Assembly (NCBI RefSeq): GCF_963921235.1
Contig: NC_086108.1
Location: 12,648,001-12,712,000 of the forward strand
Source of the DNA: Mobula hypostoma
Taxonomy: Eukaryota
Reading direction: 5' to 3'
DNA: 64,000 nucleotides
How positions within the stretch are numbered: the first letter of the stretch is position 1; each line of letters begins with the position of its first letter. The notes beneath the pieces are model-generated. The model did not search any database, had not been told where the DNA came from, and was given only the letters and a program-made list of their open reading frames with translations. This document shows, in pieces, positions 5,059 to 34,115 of this stretch. The position numbers and the translations under genes are program-made.

Positions 5059-5903
5059 AATGCACACAAAATGATGGATGAACTCAGCACGTCAGACAGC
5101 ATCCATGCAAAAGAATAAATAGTCAACATTTCAAGCCGAAACCCTTCTTACACCACCACTCTCATCCCCATTCAGGATGCCAGACAGTCCTTCCAGGTGA
5201 GGCAACTCTTCACCTGCACATCTGCTGGGATCACCTGTTGTGTCTGGTACTTCCGATGCTGCCACCTCTACGTTGGTGAGACCCGTTGTAACCTGGGGGG
5301 GGGCCACTTTGTCGCGCACCTCCACACCATCCACCACAAGTGGGACTTCTCGGGGGCCAAACATTTTAATCCTGATTCCCATTCCTGTTCCAACACATTG
5401 GTCCGTGGTCTCCTCTTGTGTCACGATGAGGCCACCATCAGGGTGGAAGTGCAACAACTTATATTCCGTCTGGGTAGCCTCCTAGCTGATGGCGTGAATA
5501 CCGATTTCTCCTTCCGGTGAACAAATCTACCTTCACCACCACCCCTCCATTCCCCACTCTGACCTTTCACTTCTTCTCACCTGCCTATTACTTCCTCCTG
5601 AGTTCCGTCTTCTTTCCCTTTCTCATATGGTTCCCTCTCCTTCCCTATCAGATACTTTCTTCTCAAGCCCTTGACCTTCCCCACTGACCTAGCTTCACCT
5701 TTCACCTTCCAGCTAGCCCCTTTCCCCTCCCTCCATCTTTTTATTCTGGCATCTTTCCCCTTCCTTCTCAGTCCTGAAGAAGGGTTGTGGCCTGAAACGT
5801 TGAATATTCATTTCCATAGATGCTGGCTGACCTGCTGAGTTCCTCCAGCATTTTGTTTTTGTTGCTTCAGATTTCCAGCATCTGCAGAATTTTTTTGTGT
5901 TTG
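5059..5903 (+). mobile_element. Penelope-like element with an inverted 5' terminal segment
   Basis: FTCTSAGITCC...LYVGETRC..LIFRLGSL GIY-YIG frame; 5059-5150 is a reverse-complement copy of the tail (~5777-5862); hammerhead at 5769-5806. Confidence 0.85.
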
Positions 5904-6499
5904 TCCTCAACCAAGTCTTTGCTTTTTCTCTTGCTGGCTCATTACAGAATAAGAAGGTGGAATTTGGAGATGGATTCACTTCACACCGGCTGGGGGCTAA
6001 CGGAACCACTCTGTAGCTGAGTCAGAGCCTGCCTTTAACGTGCTTTGACTAATATTTTCAATCAAGTATTTTGTCATTTTTGAGTAATTATCAACCCATA
6101 ATACCCTAAACACATAATTTGCTCTCTTATCAGACTTGCTGGATAAACTTCTCACTGAAGTGCTGGCCAGACAGAGACATTGTGGGGAGCTAAGTGAAGC
6201 AGGGTAGTCATCGCCCAGTGCCCACTCACAGGGCAGCTTCCTCGAGCTTCAATGAGGGCTACTGAAGACATTAGAGAGGTTCAAGGAAGCACATGGTCAC
6301 AATGGGTTTCCAGTAAAGCAAGGTCCTCAAACCATAATTAACAGAAAAGCAGAAACTTAGAACTAATGCACTAACATCTCACCAGAAAGAAGTGATTGGA
6401 ATCATGAATAATGTTGTGGGACAAGGTGACTGAGAGGTAAAATCGTGTAAATTTATCTTGTCTGGGTTCGTCACAGAGCCAAGGTGCTTGAGCTTTCTA

Positions 6500-20134: not shown

Positions 20135-22555
20135 AACCCACACTGTCAGAGAGGTAGAACTACGGGAGCCCCACGCATCACAGAGTCAGGACAAAATGAA
20201 GCCCCACACTGTCAGAGGGGCATACTGAAGGAGTGTCGCACTGTCAGAGGGGCGGTACTGAGGGAGACCCTCAGTGTCAGAGGGGCAGTACTGAGGGAGA
20301 CCCTCAATGTCAGAGGGGCAGTAGTGAGGGAGACCCACACTATCAGAGGGGCAGTAATGAGGGAGACCAACACTGTCAGAGGGGCAGTAGTGAGGGAGAG
20401 CCTCACTGTCAGAGGGGCAGTACTGAGGGCGACCCACACTGTCAGAGCGGCAGTACTGAGGAGACCAACACTGTCAGAGGGGCAGTAGTGAGGTAGACCC
20501 TCACTTTCAGAGGAAGAGTAGTGACGGAGACCCTCACTGTCAGAGGGGCAGTACTGAGGGAGACCAACACTGTCAGAGGGGCAGTACAGAAGGAATACAC
20601 ATGGTCAGAGGGGCAGTACTGAGGGAGACCCTCACTGTCAGAGGGGCAGTACTGAGGGAGACCAACACTTTCAGAGGGGCAGTACTGAGGGAGACCCTCA
20701 CTGTCAGAGGGGCAGTACTGAGGGAGACCAACACTGTCAGAGCGGCAGTACTGAGGAGACCAACACTGTCAGAGGGGCAGTAGTGAGGTAGACCCTCACT
20801 TTCAGAGGAAGAGTAGTGACGGAGACCCTCACTGTCAGAGGGGCAGTACTGAGGGAGACCAACACTGTCAGAGGGGCAGTACAGAAGGAATACACATGGT
20901 CAGAGGGGCAGTACTGAGGGAGACCCTCACTGTCAGAGGGGCAGTACTGAGGGAGACCAACACTTTCAGAGGGGCAGTACTGAGGGAGACCCTCACTGTC
21001 AGAGGGGCAGTACTGAGGGAGACCAACACCGTCAAAGGGGCAGTACTGAAGGAATCCACATGGTCAGAGGGGCAGTAGTGAGGGAGACCCTCACTGTCAG
21101 AGGGGCAGTACTGAGGGAGACCAATACTGTCAGAGGAGCAGTACTGAGGGAGACCAACACTGTCAAAGGGGCAGTACTGAAGGAATCCACATGGTCAGAG
21201 GGGCAGTACCGAATGAGTGTGACATGGTCAGAGGTGCAGTACTGAGGGAGCTCCACATTGACTGCAGAGGATGTGCAACACCATCTCAGAAGCAGTAATG
21301 AGGGAGCCCCAGGATCTGAATGAAGCGCTGAGGGAGTATACCCTATGAGAGTGATGTTACTGAGGGAGTGCAACACTGTCAAAGGGACAGTATTGAGGGA
21401 GTGCCACACAGTCAGAGGGGTAGATCTGATGAAGCACATCACCATCAGAGAGCAATACTGAGGGGGCCCCGTGCTCTCAGAGGAAGTATCTCACTGTCAG
21501 AGGGGCGATACCGAGGGAGTGTCTGTCAGAGGGGCTGTACTGAGGGAGTGTCTCACTGTCAGACGGGCGGTACTGATGGAGTGTCTCAATGTCAGAGGGA
21601 CAGTACCAAGGGAGTGTCTGTCAGATGGGCTGTACTGAGGGAGTGGCTCACTGTCAAAGGGACACTACCGAGGGAGTGTCTATCAGAGGGGCTGCACTGA
21701 GGGAGTGTCTCACTGTCAGAAGGGCAGTACCGAGGGAGTGTCTGTCAGAGGGGCAGTACTGAGGGAGTGTCTCACTGTCAGAGGGCAGTACCGAGGGAGT
21801 GTCTGTCAGAGGGGCTGTACTGAGGGAGTGTCTCACTGTCAGAGGGGCTGTACTGAGGGAGTGTCTCACTGTCAGAGGGGCAGTACCGAGGGAGTGTCTC
21901 ACTGTCAGAGGGACAGTACCGAGGGAGTGTCTATCAGAGGGGCTGCACTGAGGGAGTGTCTCACTGTCAGAAGGGCAGTACCGAGGGAGTGTCTGTCAGA
22001 GGGGCTGTACCGAGGGAGTGTCTCACTGTCAGAGGGCAGTACCGAGGGAGTGTCTCACTGTCAGAGGGACAGTACCGAGGGAGTGTCTGTCAGAGGGGCA
22101 GTACTGAGGGAGTGTCTCACTGTCAGAGGGCAGTACCGAGGGAGTGTCTGTCAGAGGGGCAGTACCGAGGGAGTGTCTCACTGTCAGAGGGCAGTACCGA
22201 GGGAGTGTCTGTCAGAGGGGCAGTACCGAGGGAGTGTCTCACTGTCAGAGGGCAGTACCGAGGGAGTGTCTCACTGTCAGAGGGCAGTACCGAGGGAGTG
22301 TCTGTCAGAGGGGCAGTACCGAGGGAGTGTCTCACTGTCAGAGGGCAGTACCGAGGGAGTGTCTGTCAGAGGGGCAGTACCGAGGGAGTGTCTCACTGTC
22401 AGAGGGCAGTACCGAGGGAGTGCCGGACTGTCAGAGGGCAGTACCGAGGGAGTGTCGCACTGCCAGAGGGGCAGTACTCAGGGAGCCCCATGCTGTGAGT
22501 TGGACAGTACTGAGCGATCCCCGCACTTTTAGAGGGGCAGTACCAAGGGAGAACC
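20135..22555. repeat. GC-rich minisatellite (33-bp unit changing to 32/27-bp units), core CACTGTCAGAGGGGCAGTACTGAGGGAG
   Basis: Direct tandem periodicity; contains a 295-bp higher-order duplication. Confidence 0.97.
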
Positions 22556-22871
22556 AGACAGGGAGGTTGAAGGTGCATTGTCAACTCTCAGATTACTTGT
22601 TCATTTTCATGCAGATCTGATGATAATATCAAAGATCTGGGACTTCTCCTGTTGTGTTGGGAAAATATTCCATGTTCAAGCACCATTGGCAAATCTATTA
22701 AAAAATTATGTTACATAAATAATTCACTTCTTTTACGGCTGATAGTGGGATCTTCCTCTTTACCAAAATAGCTTCAGGACATGTCTCTGTAGCAGCTAAG
22801 CAAACATTTCTTTGAACAGCTTACATAACTGTACTTAGTTATAAATTAACATTTCCAAATCACTTATGAAC

Positions 22872-22877
22872 TTTATT
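22872..22877 (-). terminator. Candidate poly(A) signal of the TRAPPC6 gene
   Basis: AATAAA on the - strand ~1.15 kb after the stop codon, at the end of unique, non-repetitive sequence. Confidence 0.4.
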
Positions 22878-24016
22878 TACCTCAGAATAAATTACTCTGC
22901 AGAATCTCTTAATCACTTTAATCATTTAAATCCGAGCCCAATACAGTCTAATACAGCAACTCTATTCCGTGAAAATGAGCAGTCAAAACTGTGGGCAGTA
23001 AGTGAATGTGAAAATGGGGCAAGGCTCTGAACCCCAAGGTGCTTCTGATCTCAGGGGTTGGTATTATTACATAAAGAAACAGCCTGGGCTCCATCACCTG
23101 CAGTGGAGAGTATAAACCACAGTTGAGGTCATGTCTCACAGTGAATATTATAAACTGCAGTGTAGACCACAACCCGCAATGCAGATCGCGATTTGTGGTG
23201 TAGAGCGCGAACCTGCCGGTTATGACCCTCCCACTCTCCCGACTCAACAGCTCTGAACATCAGTAGTCTTAGTACACGAAGCCAAATATAGCTTAGGCAC
23301 AAGGGGAATTTTCTCTGGGGGTGACCCTAGTCAGGCACTCAGAGACTTTGAACAATTCAGACTGACTACTCCTTGCTCCGGTCAACAAGTACCACAAGGA
23401 CACATGGGGATGGGTTTGTGCTAAATCCCCCCGTTACTAATATAGGGCAGGCAGATTGAGACTGGGATCTGCAGGTGAGAGGGACAAAGAAGCCGTGGAT
23501 TATCTCTCAATGTCCTTTGGACAGGCTAAGAACCACTTCAGCCTGCTGTCATTACATCTGGATTCTGTACACAAAGCAGTACCACAGGTGCTGAAGCCTG
23601 TTGACAGGGCATTCTCGGGATCACATTGTGTTTTCTCAGATGGAAGATGGAGGAAAACGGGAGGGGAGAGAACAGTTAAGAGTAAGAAACCAAGAACGGC
23701 TGCTCAGGAGATAGTCATAATGTTAATGGTCAGTAACAGCAGGATGATTTTTGTCCTGAGACTGGCCCATAGCAAAGGGACACTTATTGGTAATTCAAGA
23801 ATAATTTTTGTCACTGACTTCCCAGCAAGGGTTCCTTTTATCAGCAGCCATAACTCACTATAAAACAGGCTTTGATTCACTTCTATCCTCATCACAGAAC
23901 CAACTAACAACTTCAAAGTACAGCAGCTATACAGGAAATGATAAGGCACAAATCTGTCTGCAGCTACAGTTGAGCTCTATGCTTCCTCGCTGGTTCTCGT
24001 CCAGCCACACAGAGTC

Positions 24017-24048
24017 CTACGACGCCTGGATCACAATGTGAAATTTAC
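24017..24048 (-). CDS. TRAPPC6A: TRAPPC6-family last coding exon (32 nt including TAG)
   Basis: cccatttcag|(C)KFHIVIQAS*; matches the CKFQV.I C-terminus. Spliced CDS totals 474 nt = 157 aa + stop. Confidence 0.9.
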
Positions 24049-24113
24049 CTGAAATGGGAAACAAATACAGTTACAGGAGTTTCACTGAGACACAATGCAG
24101 GGAGTTTCAAATA

Positions 24114-24193
24114 TGTGTGTGTGTGTGTGTGTGTGTGTGTCTATATATACATACACACACACATATACATATATACACACACACACACACACA
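24114..24193. repeat. (TG)n/(TA)n/(CA)n microsatellite at the Tc1 left end
   Basis: Seen directly in the sequence. Confidence 0.9.
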
Positions 24194-25814
24194 CAGTGGC
24201 ATGCAAAAGTTTGGGCACCCCTGGTCAAAATTTCTGTTACTGTGAATAGTTAAGGGAGTAGAAGATGAACTGATCTCCAAAAGTCATGAAGTTAAAGATG
24301 AAACATTCTTTTCAACACTTTAAGCAAGATTAGTGTATTATTGTTGTTTTGTACAATTTTAGAGTGAAAAAAAGGAAAGGAGCACCATGCAAAAGTTTGG
24401 GTACCCCAAGAGATTTGAGTTTTCAGATAACTTTTACTAAGGTCTCAGACCTTAATTAGCTTGTTAGGGTTATGGCTTGTTCACAGTCACCGTTAGGAAA
24501 GCCCAGGTGATGCAAATTTCAAAGCTTTATAAATACCCTGACTCCTCAAACCTTGTCCCAACAATCAGCAACCATGGGGTCCTCTAAGCAGCTGCCTAGC
24601 ACTCTGAAAATTAAAATAAATGATGCCCACAAAGGAGGAGAAGGCTATAAGAAGATAGCAAAGTGTTTTCAGGTAGCCGTTGCCTCAGTTCATAACGTTA
24701 TTAAAAAATGGCAGTTAACAGGAACAGTGGAGGTCATGTTGGGGTCTGGAAGACCAAGAAAACTTTACAAGAGAACTGCTAGTAGGATTGCTAGAAAGGC
24801 AAATCAAAACCACCGTTTCACTGCAAAAGACCTTCAGGAAGATTTAGCAGACTCTGGAGTGGTGGTGCACTGTTCTACTGTGAAGCAACACCTGCACAAA
24901 TATGACCTTCATGGAAGAGTCATCAGAAGAAAACCTTTCCTGCGTCCTCACCACAAAATTTAGTGTCAGAAGTTTGTAAAGGAACATCTAAACAAGCCTG
25001 ATGCATTTTGGAAACAAGTCCCGTGGACTGATGAAGTTAAAATAGAATTTTTTGGCTGCAATGAGCAAAGGTATGTTTGGAGAAAAGAGGGTGCAGAATT
25101 TCATGAAAAGAACCCCTCTCCAACTATTAAGCACGGGGGTGGATTGATCATGCTTTGGGCTTGTGTTGCAGCCAGTGGCGCAGGGAATATTTCAGTGGTA
25201 GAGGGAAGAATTAATTCAATTAAATACCAGCAAGTTCTGGAAGCAAACATCACACCCTCTGTAAAAAAGTCAAAGATGAAAAGAGGATGGCTTCTACAAC
25301 AGGATAATGATCCTAAACACACCTCAAAATCCTCAATGGACGACCTCAAGAGGCTCAAACTGAAGCTTTTACCATGGCCCTCACAGTTCCCCGAACTAAA
25401 TATCATCGCAAATCTGTGGATAGACCTCAAAAGAGCAGTGCATGCAAGATGGCCCAAGGATCTCGCAGAACTAGAAGCTTTTTCCAAGGAAGAATGGGTG
25501 AAGATCCCCCAAATAAGAATTGAAAGACTCTTAGCTGACTACAGAAAGCGTTTACAAGCTGTGATACTTGCCAAAGGTGTGTTACTAAGTACTGACCATG
25601 CAGGGTGTCCAAACTTTTGCTTCGAGCCCTTTTCCTTTTTTGTTATTTTGAGACTGTAAAAGGTGGAAATAAAAAAGTAATCTTGCTTAAAATATTAAAG
25701 AAATGTGTCATCTTTAACTTTATGCCTTTTGGAAATCAGGTCATCTTTTACTTGCTGAGCTATTCACAGTAACAGAAATTTTGACCGGGTTGCCCAAACT
25801 TCTGCATGCCACCG
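24194..25814 (+). mobile_element. Full-length Tc1-family transposon (1621 bp) with long TIRs
   Basis: TIR CAGTGGCATGCAAAAGTTTGGGCACCCC... mirrored at the right end over ~200 bp; end motif repeated internally at ~24386. Confidence 0.95.
24574..25595 (+). pseudogene. Tc1 transposase pseudogene
   Basis: MGSSKQL..GYKKIAK..GRPRK..WTDE..QQDNDPKH..PELNIIANLW; one in-frame TAG at 24961, expected catalytic E appears as A, 1-nt frameshift near the C-terminus. Confidence 0.92.
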
Positions 25815-26875
25815 TGTGTATAAATAAAATGCATATACACATGCGTGTATATGTAAGAAAGAGACACTCACACACACATACACATATTTAATAAATAAAT
25901 GATATACATAAATAAATTAAAAAAGAGAGTGATATTGATGAATGACTAGAAAACAGTGTGGTGCCTACTCATGAGACATTAATGAATAATGAAGGTAAAT
26001 CAGGAACTAGCTGCAATTTCCACTGCCAGTCAGATAATGTTGCAAATACTGAGCAGGTCAGGCAGCATTTGTGGAGAAAGGAGCAGGTGTAATTTTCCAG
26101 ATATTGTTGTTTCATCAAAATAAGCATTTGATACGAGGTTTTTAATCCTGAATGGTTCAATTATTTTCTCTCTCCACTGAGTATTTCTAACATTTTCTGT
26201 TTTTATTTCAGATTTTCCATTTTTGTAGCTATTTGATATTTGATCAGCATAATCTTCCTCTTTGATCTTCTGGGTTTTTGACATCTTGTGGCATTCATGG
26301 CTCAGGTCTGGACTATTTGTTTTGTATGGCTACATCCTATTGATATTTTTACGTGCTTGCTATCTTGTACATGCTGTGTGTGGTTGTTGCTACTGTGTTT
26401 TGCACAGCGCAGGTGGCCGAGCAGCGCCGTGGAATCGAGGAAGGAGCGCGGGCAGCACGGGCACGCGAAGGGCGGTGGCCAGCCGTCGATGGCGCCGTGC
26501 TTGCGCAGCCGGTGGCGTGCCAGCGCAGCCCGTGTCAGGCAGCCGCGGCCGCAGTCATCGCACCGGGACCCCACCGGGTAGGAGAGAGGTCCGGCAGAGA
26601 GAAAGACCCTTTCCTCCTCCTCCTCCCCCTCCCCCTTTCTCTCCGCACACAGGTCTGCTACACTCGGCTCATCTCCCCACCCCCCCCCGTCTCTGTAACC
26701 CCTACACTCCCCATCCTCCTGTTCAAATCCCTCTCTCGCCTCCATCTCTGTAATCCCACACTCCCTGTCCTCCTGTTCAAACCCTCCCTCACCCCCTCCC
26801 TATCTCTGTAACCCCTACACTTGCCCCTCCTGTTCAAACCCCTCCTTATCTCTGTGTAGGGAGCTCTGAGGAGAG

Positions 26876-27027
26876 GGAGTACCTTTGGTGCTGATAGCTG
26901 CGCCTCACTAAGGTGGGGATGGTAGGCATCACTGGACCTCACTCATCTCCTAATTCTCTCACTTGTTGGCTCCTCGTGCCATACCCTGGAAACCGCTTCA
27001 GCTAGCGGGCGAAAACAAGTGAGGGGG
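26876..27027 (+). ncRNA. HDV-like self-cleaving ribozyme fold at the RTE 5' end
   Basis: P2 TTCTCTCACTTGTT(26954-67)/AACAAGTGAGGGGG(27014-27); P3 GGC/GCC around L3 TCCTCGT; P1 3' ATACCCT; GG for P1.1; P4 CCGCT/AGCGG; J4/2 CGAA (C27010); best P1 5' GGAGTAC (26876-82) with two mismatches. Confidence 0.8.
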
Positions 27028-27800
27028 TGGTGTCATTACTACACCACGAGGTGATCATCCCAACGGCGGAGCAGGCGGAAGAGGAGACATCTCCCAACGG
27101 CTGCAAAGGCGGATGAGGATGTCCAACAATGGGTAGGGAGGCTTGCGAGCACGCCGCAAGAACCGCCGTAGACCCACAACACTCAGGGCTTGTCTACCTA
27201 GCGTGTGAAGCCTGGATTCGGCGGACTGCGCGGAAGAAACCATCACTGGTTCAACGGGCAGAAAGGCGATTCTCAGCAATGCGTCATGGAGTGCTAAGAG
27301 GGCACAGTGAGACACACAGAACACTGCTGGCCATCCACTGCATCCTGACCTATCTCCAGCCGTCTCGACTATGTCTTGCCACTGGGTCCAGATAGGCCGG
27401 GACGAGACGGTGAGGCTGACGACCTGCGCAACTCTCCCTCACTTTAATCCAAGTCAAGCGCAAGTCATGACTTCAAACCCAAAGCGCAACCTAAAGTCCT
27501 GTGGCGATGGGGGAGTGGCGAAGCAGCAGGTACGGATACACTGGAAGCTGTAGTCACAAACCTGCACAGAGGCGGCCCAGGGCATAGGGTCGCTCTCTAC
27601 TGGACCGAAGCAGCAGTTGAGTTCGGCAGCCCCCTGGGTGTCTGAGCAGCCCTCTTCAGGGTCGCTCTGCTCACCTCCATGGAGGAAGGGGCTGGAAAAG
27701 GTGCCTCAAACATAGTCTGCTTCACTTCACCCTGGCCAGCTTACCGCGGCTGGTGGGGATCCCTCATAGCGGTCGACCTACAACAGTGAAGAAGAAAGTG

Positions 27801-30800
27801 ATGGTGCTCAACCTTGGCACATGGAACGTGAGAACTCCGCGAGATAACATCAAGGCAGACAGACCAGAGAGAAGAACAGCACTGGTTGTAAAAGAGCTAG
27901 CTCGCTACAACGTGGACATAGCAGCTCTCAGTGAAACGCGCCTAGCAGACAAGGGCCAGCTGACAGAACGTAGTGGTGGATTCACGTTCTTCTGGAGTGG
28001 TCGCAGCAGCGCTGAACAACGAGAAGCAGGCGTGGGATTTGCCATCAATTCTAACCTCGCCCGTAAACTCACCAAGCACCCAGAGAGCATCAACGACCGC
28101 CTGATGACACTTCAGCTCCCACTTGCAAACAAGAAGAGCGCTACGCTGACTAGTGGCGACGCTCCCACCATGACCAACCCAGATGACATTAAAGACAAGT
28201 TCTATGAAGAACTCGACGCCCTCATCTCAGCAATCCCACAGTCAGAGAAGCTCATCATTCTCGGGGACTTCAATGCCAGAGTAGGGACAGACTACCAAAC
28301 CTGGGAAGGGATCATTGGAAGACACGGCACTGGCAAGTGTAACAACAACGGCCTTCTGCTCCTCAAGACATGTGCCACACACGACCTTGTCATCACCAAC
28401 ACCCTGTTCCGCCTACCCACCCGTAAGAAGACATCATGGATGCACCCACGCTCGAAGCACTGGCATCTGATTGACTACATCATCACCAGGAAGAGGGACA
28501 GGATGGATGTCAGAGTGACGAGAGCCATGTGTGGTGCCGACTGCTGGACCGACCACCGCCTCATTGTGTCCAAGTTCAGGCTTCGCATTCTGCCCATGAG
28601 AAGACCCCAAGGGCAGAAGACTGCAAAGAGGCTGAATGTCTCCAAGTTGAAAAGCAGCAGGGTTGCAGAAGAATTCGTCGATGACCTTGAAGGCAGACTG
28701 CCAGACACACCACAGGAAGACGGGACCAGCGTTGAGGAACAGTGGACAGCCTTCAGAGACGCTGTCTACACTACCGCCCTTGAACATCTCGGACCAGCAG
28801 CCCAAAGAAACCAAGACTGATTCGATGAGAATGATGAAGAAATACAGGCACTACTAACGGAGAAACATCAACATTACAGAGCGCATCAGAATGACCCCAC
28901 GTCGCTAGCCGAGAAAGATGCCTTTACCAACGCAAGAAGAAAGGTGCAGAAAAAACTTCGCGAGATGCAGGACAGCTGGTTCAGCAAGAAGGCCGATGAA
29001 ATCCAGGGTTATGCAGACAGCCACGACATAAAGCGCTTCTACGATGCGCTTAAGGCTGTATACAGACCCCAGTCCTCTGGCTCTTCACCCCTCCTCAACG
29101 CAGATGAGATGCAGCTGCTGACAGAGAAGAAGCAGATTCTGGATCGGTGGGCTGAGCACTTTAACATCGTCCTTAACCGCCCTGCTGACGTCAACAACGA
29201 GGCCATTGCCCGCCTGCCCCAGGTAGAGATCAACAAGAACCTCAACACCCTCCCCACAGTAGATGAAGTCAGGAAGGCAGTGAAGCAACTCTCCTGTGGC
29301 AAAGCGCCAGGACCCGATGCAATCCCTGCTGAGGTATACAAAGCAGGAGGCCCTGTCATGATGCAAAAGCTGACTGTACTCTTCCAGTCCATGTGGAAAA
29401 AGGGACAGGTCCCGCAACAGCTGAAAGATGCCAGCATAGTCCACATCTACAAGAGGAAAGGCAACCGCCAGTCTCGGGACAACCACCGAGGCATCTCCCT
29501 CTTGTCCATTGCGGGGAAGATTCTGGCCCGTGTCCTGCTCAACCGCCTTCTCCAACATCTTGAGCAAGGTCTGCTCCCAGAAAGCCAGTGCGGCTTCCGT
29601 GCTGAACGTGAGACTGCGGACATGATTTTTGCTGCGCGCCAACTCCAGGAAAAATGCCAGGAGTAACACAGTGACCTCTTCGTGACCTTTGTCGATCTAA
29701 CCAAGGCTTTCGATACGGTCAGCAGAGAAGGCTTGTGGAAGATCATGGAGAAGTTTGGCTGCCCCAGCAAGTTCATCACAATCGTCCGGCAGTTCCACGA
29801 CGGTATGATGGTAAAAGTTCTGGATGATGGCGACGAGTCGGAGACCTTCCCAGTGACAAATGGTGTCAAACAAGGCTGCGTTCTTGCCCCGACTCTGTTC
29901 AGTATGGTATTCTCTGCCATGCTGACAGATGCCTTCCGTAACTACGAAGAAGGAATTCACGTCAGGTAGAGGACTGACGGCAGGTTGTTCAACCTTAGGC
30001 GCCTGCAGGCAGTTACAAAGGTGCCAGAAATTGTCATCAGAGATTTCTTGTTTGCTGATGACTGTGCACTCAACGCCAGCACAGAGGAGATGCAGCGTGA
30101 AATAGACTGCTTCTCACAAGCCTGCGACAACTTCGGTCTCACTATCAGCACCAAAAAGACCGAAGTTATGTACCAGCCTGCCCCAGGAAAGCCATACCAG
30201 GAGCCGCGCATCACAGTGAAGGGCCAGAACCCCCAGGCAGTCGACAACTTCACCTACCTGGGCAGCATACTCTCTCGCACAGTGAACATAGACGCTGAGG
30301 TCAACAACAGGATTGCCAAAGCCAGCGCCGCCTTTGGGAGACTCCGTGAGAACGTCTGGGAGCAGAGAGGACTCAGCCTTATCACCAGGCTGAAGGTCTA
30401 CTGTGCAGTGGTCCTTACCACCCTCCTTTATGCCAGCAAGACCTGGACTGTCTACAGCAGACACGCCAAACAGCTCAACCACTTTCACCTGAGCTGTCTC
30501 CGCAGACTCCTCCACATCAGGTGGCAGGACAAAGTCCCCGACACGGAAATCCTGGAACGAGCTGGGCTCTGCAGCGTCTACACCCTCCTGCTGAAAGCCC
30601 AAGCCAGGTGGGCTGGACATGTGGTCAGAATGCCAGACAGCCGATTGCCTAAGCAGCTGCTGTATGGAGAACTGTGTCAGGGCAAGCGCTCAGTTGGGGG
30701 GCAGAAGAAACGTTACAAAGTCTGCCTTAAAGCGTCCCTCAAAGGCCTGGGTGTCAACATCAACACGTGGGAGACGCTTGCCCTCGATCGTCCAGCTTGG

Positions 30801-31007
30801 CGCAGCAAGATCACCACAGGAGCCCGTGCAGCTGAAGTCAGGCGCATCATTGAGGCGCAACGAAAGCGTGCTGTGCGCAAGGCCCGAGCAGCATCCACTG
30901 CCACGACAGCACCCACCCACTTGTGTCCCACATGTGGGCGAGCCTTCAGGGCCCGGATTGGCCTCATCAGTCACCTCCAGACCCACAACCACCAATCTCC
31001 CATTTGA
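27801..31007 (+). pseudogene. RTE ORF (AP endonuclease + reverse transcriptase + C-terminal C2H2 zinc finger)
   Basis: LGTWNVRT..IAALSETR..GDFNAR..WTDHRLI; PGPD; VDLTKAFD; KQGCVLAPTLF; FADD; CPTCGRAF..H..TH. One frame throughout with three nonsense codons (28818, 29664, 29967). Confidence 0.95.
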
Positions 31008-31599
31008 CTTTGAAGCCATGGTAATCTTCGACTACGAAGGACGAACAACAACAACAACAACAACAACAACTGTGTTTTGCACCTTGACCCTGTAGTAATG
31101 CAATCTCATTTAGCTGTATTCATGGGTATTCATGTATAGTTGAATGTCAGCAAGCTGAAGGGCAGCGGGAATTTGGGGAACAACGAAGAGAATGAGTAGG
31201 GAGTATACAGTTCCTGCATGGGAGCCATTCGCAGGTCGAGGCAGTCTACTACTAAGGAATCTGTCTGAGCCCAATGCCTGCCCCTCTGCAGCACAGGATG
31301 GTTGCTTTCAGATGTCTATGAAGAGGGACCATTGGTGATTGACCCACTGGCTGCCTAGAGATCTTCTGAGTCCAGACAGAACAAGAGAGACAGGATTGAA
31401 AAGCACTCTTAAACAAGGGGTGCACTCTAAAATTGCTGTGACAATGTCAATGAGTAAATCAAGTCACCGTTTTAAAAGAAAAAAGCCAAGCCTTGATGTA
31501 AGGGGGACAGTATGGTCATCCTGATAATACACTTAATTTGGAAAATTTGTGTTAAAAACTCAGGAAGCATTTACTTTTAAGTTTTCCTCAAAGAATGAT

Positions 31600-32132
31600 A
31601 AGACCACAAGATTATAAGATATAGGAGCAGAATTATGCCATTTGGCCAATTGAGTCTGCTCCGCCATTTAGTCATGGGTGATCCATTTCCCTCTCAACCC
31701 CAGTCTTCTGCCTTCTCCCTGTATCCTTTCATGCCCTGACTAATTAAGAATCTATCAACCTCTGCCTTAAATATGACTTGGCCTCCATAGCCATCTGCGG
31801 CAACAAATTCCACAGATTCATCACTCTCCAGCTAAAGAAATTCCTTCTTACCTCTGTTCTAAATGGACATCCCTCTATTCTGAGGCTGAGTCCTCTGGCC
31901 TTAGAATCTTCCACCATAGGAAAGACCCTCTCCATATCCACTCTATCAGGACCTTTCACCTAACTGATAGGTTTCAATTAGGTTTCTCCTCATTCTTCTG
32001 AATTCCAGTGAATACAGGCCCAGAGCCATCAAACGCTTCTCATATGACAAATGGCTCCATCCTGGAATCATTTTCATGAACTTCCTTTGAACCTTCTCCG
32101 TGTCAGCACATCCTTTCGAAGATAAGGGGCAC
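31600..32132 (-). mobile_element. CR1 3' fragment
   Basis: FPMVEDSKARGLSLRIEGCPFRTEVRRNFF. Confidence 0.85.
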
Positions 32133-32614
32133 TGATACTGGTGTGTTAATTTTATCTATATACATATCATTAACTGTGATGAGAATGCTTATCTCCATAT
32201 TGTATATTTTTTGACTTTTTTTAATGAAAGGGGTATTAAATTAAGACAGGACCTAAGTAGAATTTCAATTCAGCAAGACCAACAGTTGTTTATTGGGAGC
32301 AGGAAGCCCTCTGTGTGTTGAGAGCGCCACCTTGTGTTACTATTGTAACATACAGCCCCAGGATTCCAACACTACACGGCAGATCAGATTACAGATATTC
32401 CATCAGGCGAGAGGCCATTCAACCCATTAACCTCTCCCCTCTGCTTTTCTCATATGCCTCTTCAAATAATTGATCTGTTCTGGAAAGTAACGAGAGGAAG
32501 CAAGCCAGACTCAGACAGAGGGCGAATGCGGAATCTGCTCTGGCCACAGCTCACTTTGAGTGTCAGCATGACCAATGCAGGTCCAATCACAGAAGGAAAG
32601 GATCTTAAAGAAAG

Positions 32615-33975
32615 ATTTTGGCACATTGGCCTTTAGAAATCAAACATTTGAGTACAGAAGATAGGATGTTATAGTTGAAGTTGTTTAAGATGCTGGTGAG
32701 GTCTAGTTTAGAGTATTATCTGCAGTTTTAGTTACCTACATACAGGAAAGATGTAAATAAGGTAGAATGAGTACAGAGAAAATTTACAAGGATGTTGCCA
32801 GGTCTGGACAACCTGAGTTATATGGAAAGGTTCAATAGCTTAGGATTCTTTTCCTTGGAACATAGAAGATTGTGAGGAGATTTGATAGCATAATACAAAA
32901 TTATGAGGGGTAAATGCAAGCAGACTTGTTCCATTGAGGTTGGGTGGGACTACAACCAGAGGTCATTGGTTAAGGGTGAAAGGTGAAAAGTTTAAGGGAA
33001 ACTTTTCAGTGAGCCTTACTTCATTGGTTGGTAAGTTGATGGAGAAGATCCTGAGAGGCAGGATTTATGAACATTTGGAGAGGAATAGTCAGCATGGCTT
33101 TGTGAAAGGCAGGTCGTGCCTTACAAGCCTGATTTAATTTTTTGAGGATGTGACTAAACACATTGATGAAGGTAGAGCGGTAGATGTAGTGTATATGGAT
33201 TTTAGCAAGGCATCTGATGAGCTATATAGGACCCTGGTCAGACCCCACTTGGAGTACTGTGCTCAATTCTGGTCGCCTCACTACAGGAAGGACGTGGAAA
33301 CCATAGAAAGGGTGCAGAGGAAATTTACAAGGATGTTGCCTGGATTGGGAAGCATGCCTTATGAGAATAAGTTGAGTGAACTTGGCCTTTTCTCCTTGGA
33401 GCGACAGAGGATGAGAGGTGACCTGATAGAGGTATACAAGATAATGAGAGGCATTGATCATGTGGATAGTCAGAGGCTTTTTCCCAGGGCTGAAATGGCT
33501 AGCACAAGAGGGCATAGTTTTAAGGTGCTTGGAAGCAGGTACAGAGGAGATGCCAGGGTTAAGTTTTTTTACGCAGAGTGGTGAGTGCGTGGAATGGGCT
33601 GCTGGCGGCGGCGGCAGACGCGAAAATGATAGGGTCTTTTAAGAGACTCCTGGATGGATACATGGAGCTTGGAAAATAGAGGGCTATGGGTAAGCCTAGG
33701 TAGTTCTAAGATAAGGGCCTGTATTGTGCGGTAGATTTTCTATGTTTCTATGAAATATGAGGGGAAATTTCTTCACATAAAGTGTTGCAAGAGTGTGGAA
33801 CGAACTCTGCGAGCTTGATTTCAATGCTTAAGGGTCTGGATAGGTACATGGATGGTAGGGGTTATGAAGGGCTATGGTCCTGGTGTAGGTTGATGGGAGA
33901 AGGCTGTTTAAATAGTTTGACATTGGACTAGATGTGCCAAAGGGCCCGTTTCTGTACTGTACTTTTCTACGACTG
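32615..33975 (+). mobile_element. CR1 fragment interrupted by a second, internally deleted CR1 (~33003-33752)
   Basis: Outer element reads ..KFKGN|insert|MRGNFFT; inner element reads SLTSLVGK..SQHGFVKGRSCLT..MDFSKA then YRTLVRPHLEYC; (TTTCTATG)n tail. Confidence 0.85.
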
Positions 33976-34115
33976 CACAGTCAGCTCTAGGGCAACACGA
34001 AGATGAAGGAATGGTGGGCAGGCAGGACTTCTTTCTCAAGTTTACGTTAACCTTTCCATTAACTGGCTGTGGACTGTAATACAGTGGATCTTTTCCTCGG
34101 TCCCAAATCACTTAC

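Follow-up and report, generated by a model that had tools for sequence, protein, structure and literature searches.

Turnover of the 5' end is familiar from L1 retrotransposons, which replace their 5' UTRs, carry tandem monomer promoters in rodents, and acquire 5' inversions by twin priming. HDV-like ribozymes of retrotransposons were reportedly treated by Ruminski in 2011. Such ribozymes are described at the 5' end of RTE, R2, R4, and Ingi/L1Tc retrotransposons in passages of PMC3774820, PMC5786205, and PMC6765202, and the second of these argues that RTE ribozymes cut off upstream heads in SINE formation. Single mismatches in P1 are linked to loss of cleavage in PMC3774820, which also describes a 4-bp P1 as active in a wasp R2 with up to 32% cleavage. 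For the twister ribozymes of Perere-3, an RTE of Schistosoma, the Discussion of PMC8501958 suggests that inactive variants result when the 5' end is copied inaccurately and that RNAs with an inactive ribozyme may take in upstream host RNA. A host leader can also found a subfamily, as described for SVA_F1 (MAST2) and chimpanzee pt_SVA_D6 (STK40), each of which goes back to a spliced GC-rich first exon (PMC6139936). The locus described here bears on what 5' ribozymes are for in non-site-specific LINEs and on where the internal promoters of LINEs come from.

This locus lies in the window, by which we mean the whole analyzed stretch of 64,000 nucleotides. We read it as an RTE-type LINE with a 5' HDV-like ribozyme, three P1 bases of which were replaced by the minisatellite of a host zinc-finger (ZNF) gene, likely stopping self-cleavage so that host RNA was copied along with the element, and we give this reading a probability of about 0.7.

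The window element and its ribozyme

The LINE copy spans 26854 to the end of its (AAC)n tail at 31068, and the 14-bp target-site duplication (TSD) that flanks it also encloses about 450 nt on its 5' side:

26392 to 26405, plus strand: left TSD, 14 bp
26406 to 26566, minus strand: inverted coding-exon piece of a host C2H2 zinc-finger gene, 94.6% identical to positions 5749-5913 of the donor locus L058
26560 to 26853, plus strand: direct piece of the same ZNF donor, with the end of its ORF and about three C-rich minisatellite units
26854 to 26855, plus strand: host/element junction with a 2-nt GT microhomology, element homology starting at G4
27801 to 31007, plus strand: single APE-RT reading frame of 1068 codons (Pfam)
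31044 to 31068, plus strand: (AAC)n 3' tail
31069 to 31082: right TSD, 14 bp

Pfam places PF03372 (APE) and then PF00078 (RT) in one frame, and an ORF search of 26854-27620 found no ORF1, that is, no plus-strand ORF of at least 120 aa. With a single APE-RT ORF lacking ORF1, a short tandem-repeat 3' tail, and a TSD, the element is by its architecture, rather than by RT phylogeny, an RTE-type LINE. An Atlas neighbor of its protein (0.96) is labeled "craniofacial development protein 2-like", a name that we take to be tied to RTE elements; comparison of the APE domain with the PDB gave no match. The window copy is dead because three in-frame stops (28818, 29664, and 29967) break the APE-RT frame, and taken singly it is an ordinary dead insertion; the copy L062 retains 1024 aa free of stops. 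Upstream in the window, at about 24200-25815, two ORFs (24511-24963 and 24964-25659) belong to what on visual inspection resembles a DNA transposon of the Tc1/mariner type.

An HDV-like core at 26956-27025 forms the 5' part of the element together with P1 and J1/2:

26851 to 26857, plus strand: true register of the P1 5' strand, UCUGUGU here and GGGGURU in the family, with G1-G3 replaced by host sequence
26858 to 26955, plus strand: J1/2, a predicted 98-nt branched hairpin with compensatory changes (RNAalifold and alignment)
26956 to 26967, plus strand: P2 5' strand
26968 to 26970 with 26978 to 26980, plus strand: P3
26971 to 26977, plus strand: L3
26981 to 26987, plus strand: P1 3' strand, with a private C-to-T change at 26982
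26988 to 26989, plus strand: P1.1 (GG)
26993 to 27008, plus strand: P4
27010, plus strand: predicted catalytic C in the GCGAA of J4/2, a role assigned by analogy with HDV
27014 to 27025, plus strand: P2 3' strand

A genome search with the ribozyme led to 20 places, 7 of them young (96-100% identical to the window) and 13 at 73-86%. Across these 20 copies P2, P3 (3 bp) with L3, P1.1 (2 bp), and P4 follow the order of a nested double pseudoknot and are 89-93% paired; 23 alignment cells are changed on both sides of a pair, a number reached by 0 of 500 shuffles, in rows that are related to each other. The count of covarying pairs (5, against 3.4 in shuffles) is matched by 100 of the 500 shuffles and thus does not exceed them. 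The column of C27010, presumably the catalytic C as in HDV, is nearly invariant. RNAalifold recovered J1/2 and not the pseudoknot, and Rfam returned no ribozyme match at E<=1 in 22000-34000, only repeat-driven miRNA matches; the 98-nt J1/2 may account for the absent match.

The family's P1 5' strand is the first 7 nt of the element, GGGGURU, which covaries with AYACCCY: pair 6 is G-C in 9 copies, A-U in 8, G-U in 2, and unpaired in 1, a covariation that reflects a few lineages with related rows and not 20 independent events. The nested pseudoknot built with this P1 is 86% paired in the 20 aligned copies versus 38-54% in slid registers. All seven pairs form in L044, L049, L050, L053, L055, and the native L042, and also in L047 in its own register, with duplex energies of -8.2 to -11.8 kcal/mol in the fully paired rows and of -9.9 and -10.1 kcal/mol in the two native young copies, so that the family has a P1 of 6-7 bp with a paired purine at +1. 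This purine is A rather than G1 in both native young copies, and in one of them the A is the last base of the TSD. Homology in the 20-copy alignment begins 22 nt 5' of 26876, and leaderless copies have GGGGTRT, whole or truncated, as their first bases.

Further evidence for the 5' end comes from a second APE-RT lineage with (GAA)-type tails (L086-L098, for example, at G000:C55:56.68 Mb and C36:92.78 Mb). Its protein is 20-32% identical to that of the window element and its first 200 nt, the ribozyme, are 70-83% identical, which suggests that the module moved between lineages or is strongly conserved; several of its copies have been reduced by internal deletion to about 450-470 nt. In this lineage 8 of 13 copies open with GGGG next to unrelated flanks, 5 of 13 lack the first 2-5 bases, and 2 of 13, the only ones with clear TSDs, have a TSD that ends exactly at G1. 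The self-cleavage site is predicted directly 5' of G1, to which these element ends and TSDs map.

The original prediction had placed P1 elsewhere, in a pairing of GGAGUAC (26876-82) with AUACCCU (26981-87) weakened by point lesions in the source element. The letters are as claimed, with 5 of 7 pairs, G-U at +1, and -0.8 kcal/mol, and a pairing of this quality is at chance level: J1/2 holds 2 such 7-mers starting with G and forming at least 5 of 7 pairs, the mean in shuffles is 3.3, and 98.6% of 1000 dinucleotide shuffles of J1/2 hold at least one. The two A-C mismatches that had been taken for lesions are unpaired in 20 of 20 copies, the register as a whole is 55% paired with no covarying pair, none of the 7 young copies starts at 26876, and the strand sits inside the J1/2 hairpin, which has compensatory changes of its own. 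Nor can CpG decay be claimed for 26981 and dated to after the insertion, as this base is A in all 20 copies. That a different 5' strand is the conserved one had been named in advance as the outcome that would speak against this pairing, and we consider it very improbable that 26876-82 is the P1 strand. The change that is private to the window copy is its neighbor C26982T (C in 6 of 6 other young copies and in 1297 of 1313 depth units of a run from the related organism D), by which one G-C pair of the true P1 became G-U.

A zinc-finger leader in place of the first P1 bases

The sequence upstream of the window element comes from a C2H2 zinc-finger gene on contig G000:C80 (L058), whose ORF carries the Pfam zf-C2H2 domain. 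It consists of the 3' end of the coding exon, the stop codon (TAG at 26579-81), and the C-rich minisatellite downstream of it, which is spliced off in no copy. In the window its first 160 nt are inverted, about 110 bp of the donor are missing, and microhomology is found at both ends of the inversion, a pattern that we take to be the mark of twin priming; by its sequence the inversion is of the twin-priming type.

Of the 7 young copies that bear the ribozyme, 5 have the identical junction between ZNF sequence and element. The window P1, UCUGUGU with AUACCCU, forms 4 of 7 pairs (-0.8 kcal/mol) with a U at the cut site, so that the 6-7 bp and the paired purine at +1 of the family are absent here, and the other four ZNF-leader copies have the same P1 5' strand (-2.7 kcal/mol). 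The idea that a lesion was already present in the source element thus holds for the true P1, which is broken in 5 of 5 ZNF-leader copies and hence was so already in the source that they share. An upstream leader and an intact P1 occur together in none of the 7 young copies. An internal strand at 26874-80 forms 6 of 7 pairs with the P1 3' strand (-3.4 kcal/mol for the window copy and about -4.9 for other young ones) and could support cleavage at a low level; the first bases of this strand, however, are predicted to be engaged in J1/2 pairing. Given this strand and by analogy with the active 4-bp P1 described above, the window and ZNF alleles may retain some residual cleavage.

With its junction only 3 nt past the predicted cleavage site, the hybrid probably goes back to an RNA that had been cleaved normally. 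Element copies often lack their first bases, as seen in 5 of 13 copies of the second lineage and in the A at +1 of the native copies, and P1 was therefore likely lost at the fusion itself. Its loss would explain why the hybrid's daughters retained the leader, not how host sequence was first captured. The proposal that a broken P1 accounts for the retained upstream RNA is therefore partly supported, with the true P1 (U, C, and U at positions 1-3) in place of the lesions that it had named, and the order of events that it implied was likely the reverse.

Two routes could have joined the element to the minisatellite, insertion into a ZNF allele that is now lost or a template switch, in which reverse transcriptase at the 5' end of a cleaved RTE RNA jumped to ZNF mRNA at the GT, so that the first chimera arose at a new site without any insertion in the ZNF gene. 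A jump would fit the position of the junction at the 5' end of the RTE RNA, the absence of an RTE attached to the ZNF donor or within about 25 kb past its ORF, and the lack of minisatellite 3' of the element in all 5 ZNF-type copies. In two pairs of ZNF-type copies (the window with L057, and L059 with L061) the partners extend 5' to almost the same point of the donor, at L058 5913/5914 and 5681/5682, respectively; these points are perhaps start sites or ends of secondary source elements, and in the latter case they could go together with a jump as well. Such a switch would, however, have to land inside another RNA with just 2 nt of homology, and the OTUD5 lineage described below needs an in-cis insertion that is likewise gone from the assembly, so lost source alleles do occur. 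We thus prefer insertion into a now-lost ZNF allele and consider a template switch unlikely. In the donor repeat, 0 of 25 units continue as in the junction.

Young copies form a star-like tree, in which 1 of 29 branches is starred and the ZNF copies are not united in one clade, with many rows representing the longest match only. Among the matches listed for RNA-type contigs of other organisms, which cannot reveal RNA ends, no piece spans the ZNF junction, and a raw-read run gave one read. In organism D the ribozyme is deeply covered, and 42 contigs end with loose flanks at 26854-57.

OTUD5 leaders spliced into the ribozyme

A search for 5' ends of the element showed that 32 of the best 40 of 340 candidates match the window only from 26999, where the P4 loop contains one further feature:

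26999 to 27001, plus strand: CAG in the P4 loop, 3' splice acceptor of an OTUD5-leader lineage elsewhere in the genome

This CAG holds the first AG past a pyrimidine-rich stretch of 74 nt that is free of AG. The leader of the copies that match from 26999 is exon 1 of OTUD5, with its donor also on contig C80 (L065). The gene name rests on PDB matches (E 3e-14 and 4e-6), since a Pfam OTU search of the genome found 5 places, none of them at this donor. The donor exon ends CAG|GTGAG, with exon 2 about 11 kb further on, and the chimeras read CAG|CTAG, so that the leader ends at the exon-1 splice donor and joins directly after an AG of the element as in SVA_F1. From these boundaries, OTUD5 exon 1 is spliced into the P4 loop with deletion of P1-P3. 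The same exon end is used in L069 (G000:C22:113.58 Mb), a decayed OTUD5 retrocopy in which exon 1 is joined to the start of exon 2. No RTE was found in the 80 kb from OTUD5 exon 1, which include all of the ~11-kb intron 1, and the source element may be a lost allele. Both leader donors lie on one 37-Mb contig (G000:C80:31.94 Mb for OTUD5 and 36.57 Mb for ZNF). Our literature search found nothing that links RTE retrotransposons with OTUD5.

By exact junction patterns, 31 copies are OTUD5-spliced versus 7 with a native P4 loop (5 ZNF-type, 1 native, and 1 truncated). Inspection of 29 loci showed a long direct OTUD5 leader at 4, an inverted piece plus the last 38-39 nt at 21, the short piece only at 2, and neither at 2. 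The inverted lineage carries a TATA-like motif with 26 exact matches, and its members L099-L124 open with this motif together with a tandem array of 0-14 CpG-rich units, each about 41 nt long. Clear markers of the later OTUD5 copies are only T27040C and the deletion of a 301-nt stretch of the 5' UTR (window 27490-27790) in an alignment without L070; the deletion is found in most of these copies and in contigs of organisms A and B. The OTUD5 junction was seen in DNA contigs of organisms A and B and was not among the matches listed for organism D.

A lead from read data pointed to a second OTUD5-bearing junction at 27049, which has 55 exact matches. In all 21 inspected copies (20 plus one earlier locus) the sequence leads into the RTE, and OTUD5 exon 1 is present in inverted form in 19 of them; this lineage likely derives from the OTUD5 lineage. 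Further 5' in 5 of the 21 copies lies a fragment resembling MCEE (methylmalonyl-CoA epimerase, E 5e-4); this coding fragment, 5' of the inverted OTUD5 piece in L128, L132, L134, L135, and L141, represents a further serial capture.

OTUD5-bearing lineages make up most of the young 5' ends that we found: only 2 young copies start at the ribozyme versus about 90 with host leaders, minimum counts from separate exact-match searches. An intact ribozyme is absent from all multi-copy leader lineages that we found, the ZNF lineage and those of the two OTUD5-derived junctions. The host leaders are rich in CpG (GC 0.74-0.80, CpG observed/expected 0.9-1.1), and this CpG-island composition marks them as candidate promoters. 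It is conceivable on this ground that the state of the ribozyme is incidental, with intact copies cleaving slowly or leakily in vivo and leaders spreading solely as CpG-island promoters, the more so as in the OTUD5 founder the splice had to span an intron holding the cleavage site. Leaderless copies nevertheless start at or within a few bases of G1, pointing to efficient cleavage of the template, and the lack of both a leader and an intact P1 in any one of the 7 young copies argues in the same direction, so that we regard an incidental role as quite improbable. The ribozyme likely works as a filter against 5' transduction, and lineages are founded by its loss, which comes easily because 5' truncation reaches the P1 strand first. 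It had originally been described as a switch for the capture of host exons, a term that suits it poorly: Loss by truncation or splicing is all-or-none and permanent, which fits a filter or ratchet better than anything tunable.

Proposed course of events and comparison with known systems

The P1 register, the shared junction, the donor gene, the 5' inversion, and the TSD can be read directly from the DNA, and around them we would order the steps as follows. Reverse transcription of a normally cleaved RTE RNA presumably stopped 3 nt short of its 5' end, and a GT microhomology served to join the product to the ZNF minisatellite, most likely through insertion there into an allele since lost. The hybrid would have been unable to remove its leader, and read-through ZNF-RTE RNA could then serve as a template from which at least 5 daughters were inserted, the one in the window with a twin-priming inversion. 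C26982T would have followed after or during the insertion of the window copy. A second exit from the ribozyme-led state was probably opened when OTUD5 exon 1 was spliced into the P4 loop and P1-P3 were removed, and the OTUD5 lineages would then have kept adding host sequence in the form of inversions, CpG-rich tandem monomers, and the MCEE-like fragment.

On a broader and more tentative reading, to which we give somewhat less than even odds, the LINE might be shifting from a promoterless, ribozyme-released element to an L1-like one with a captured CpG promoter, and loss of the ribozyme would be a one-way gate. Equally tentatively, the 5' end would past this gate accrete host exons, inversions, and monomers, with the resulting lineages outnumbering ribozyme copies in this genome while a related species kept the ribozyme.

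The family provides matched natural alleles on a nearly identical body (about 94-98% identical to the window), namely, intact, P1-truncated with the ZNF leader, and spliced-out with the OTUD5 leader, across which cleavage, promoter strength, and retrotransposition are directly comparable. The proposed mechanism predicts that ribozyme-led LINEs transduce 5' host sequence only via ribozyme-dead daughters, and such daughters may be common given that 5 of 13 copies of the second lineage lost their first 2-5 bases.

A literature search, with Ruminski 2011 and the repeat databases outside its scope, returned no report of an autonomous LINE swapping its ribozyme for host leaders. As far as the passages cited at the outset describe them, the known 5' HDV-like ribozymes share with this one a nested double pseudoknot at the 5' terminus, a long J1/2, and cleavage at the 5' junction, which is predicted here; unlike in those systems, most young copies here have no ribozyme and carry host leaders instead. 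What the Discussion on Perere-3 twister variants puts forward as a suggestion can be set beside named donors, shared junctions, and copy counts at this locus. The OTUD5 lineage resembles SVA_F1 and pt_SVA_D6, as these are portrayed in the cited account, in the joining of a GC-rich exon 1 to an acceptor in the 5' part of the element, in its tens of copies, and in further 5' transductions. It differs in that the element is an autonomous APE-RT LINE, that the acceptor lies in a ribozyme loop, and that splicing deletes the ribozyme, and the window's own leader is unspliced and derives from the terminal part of a ZNF coding exon. L1 and this element have in common that the 5' end turns over, that CpG-rich monomers occur (here about 41 nt long), and that 5' inversions arise, whereas the starting state here was a ribozyme and inverted daughters became source elements.
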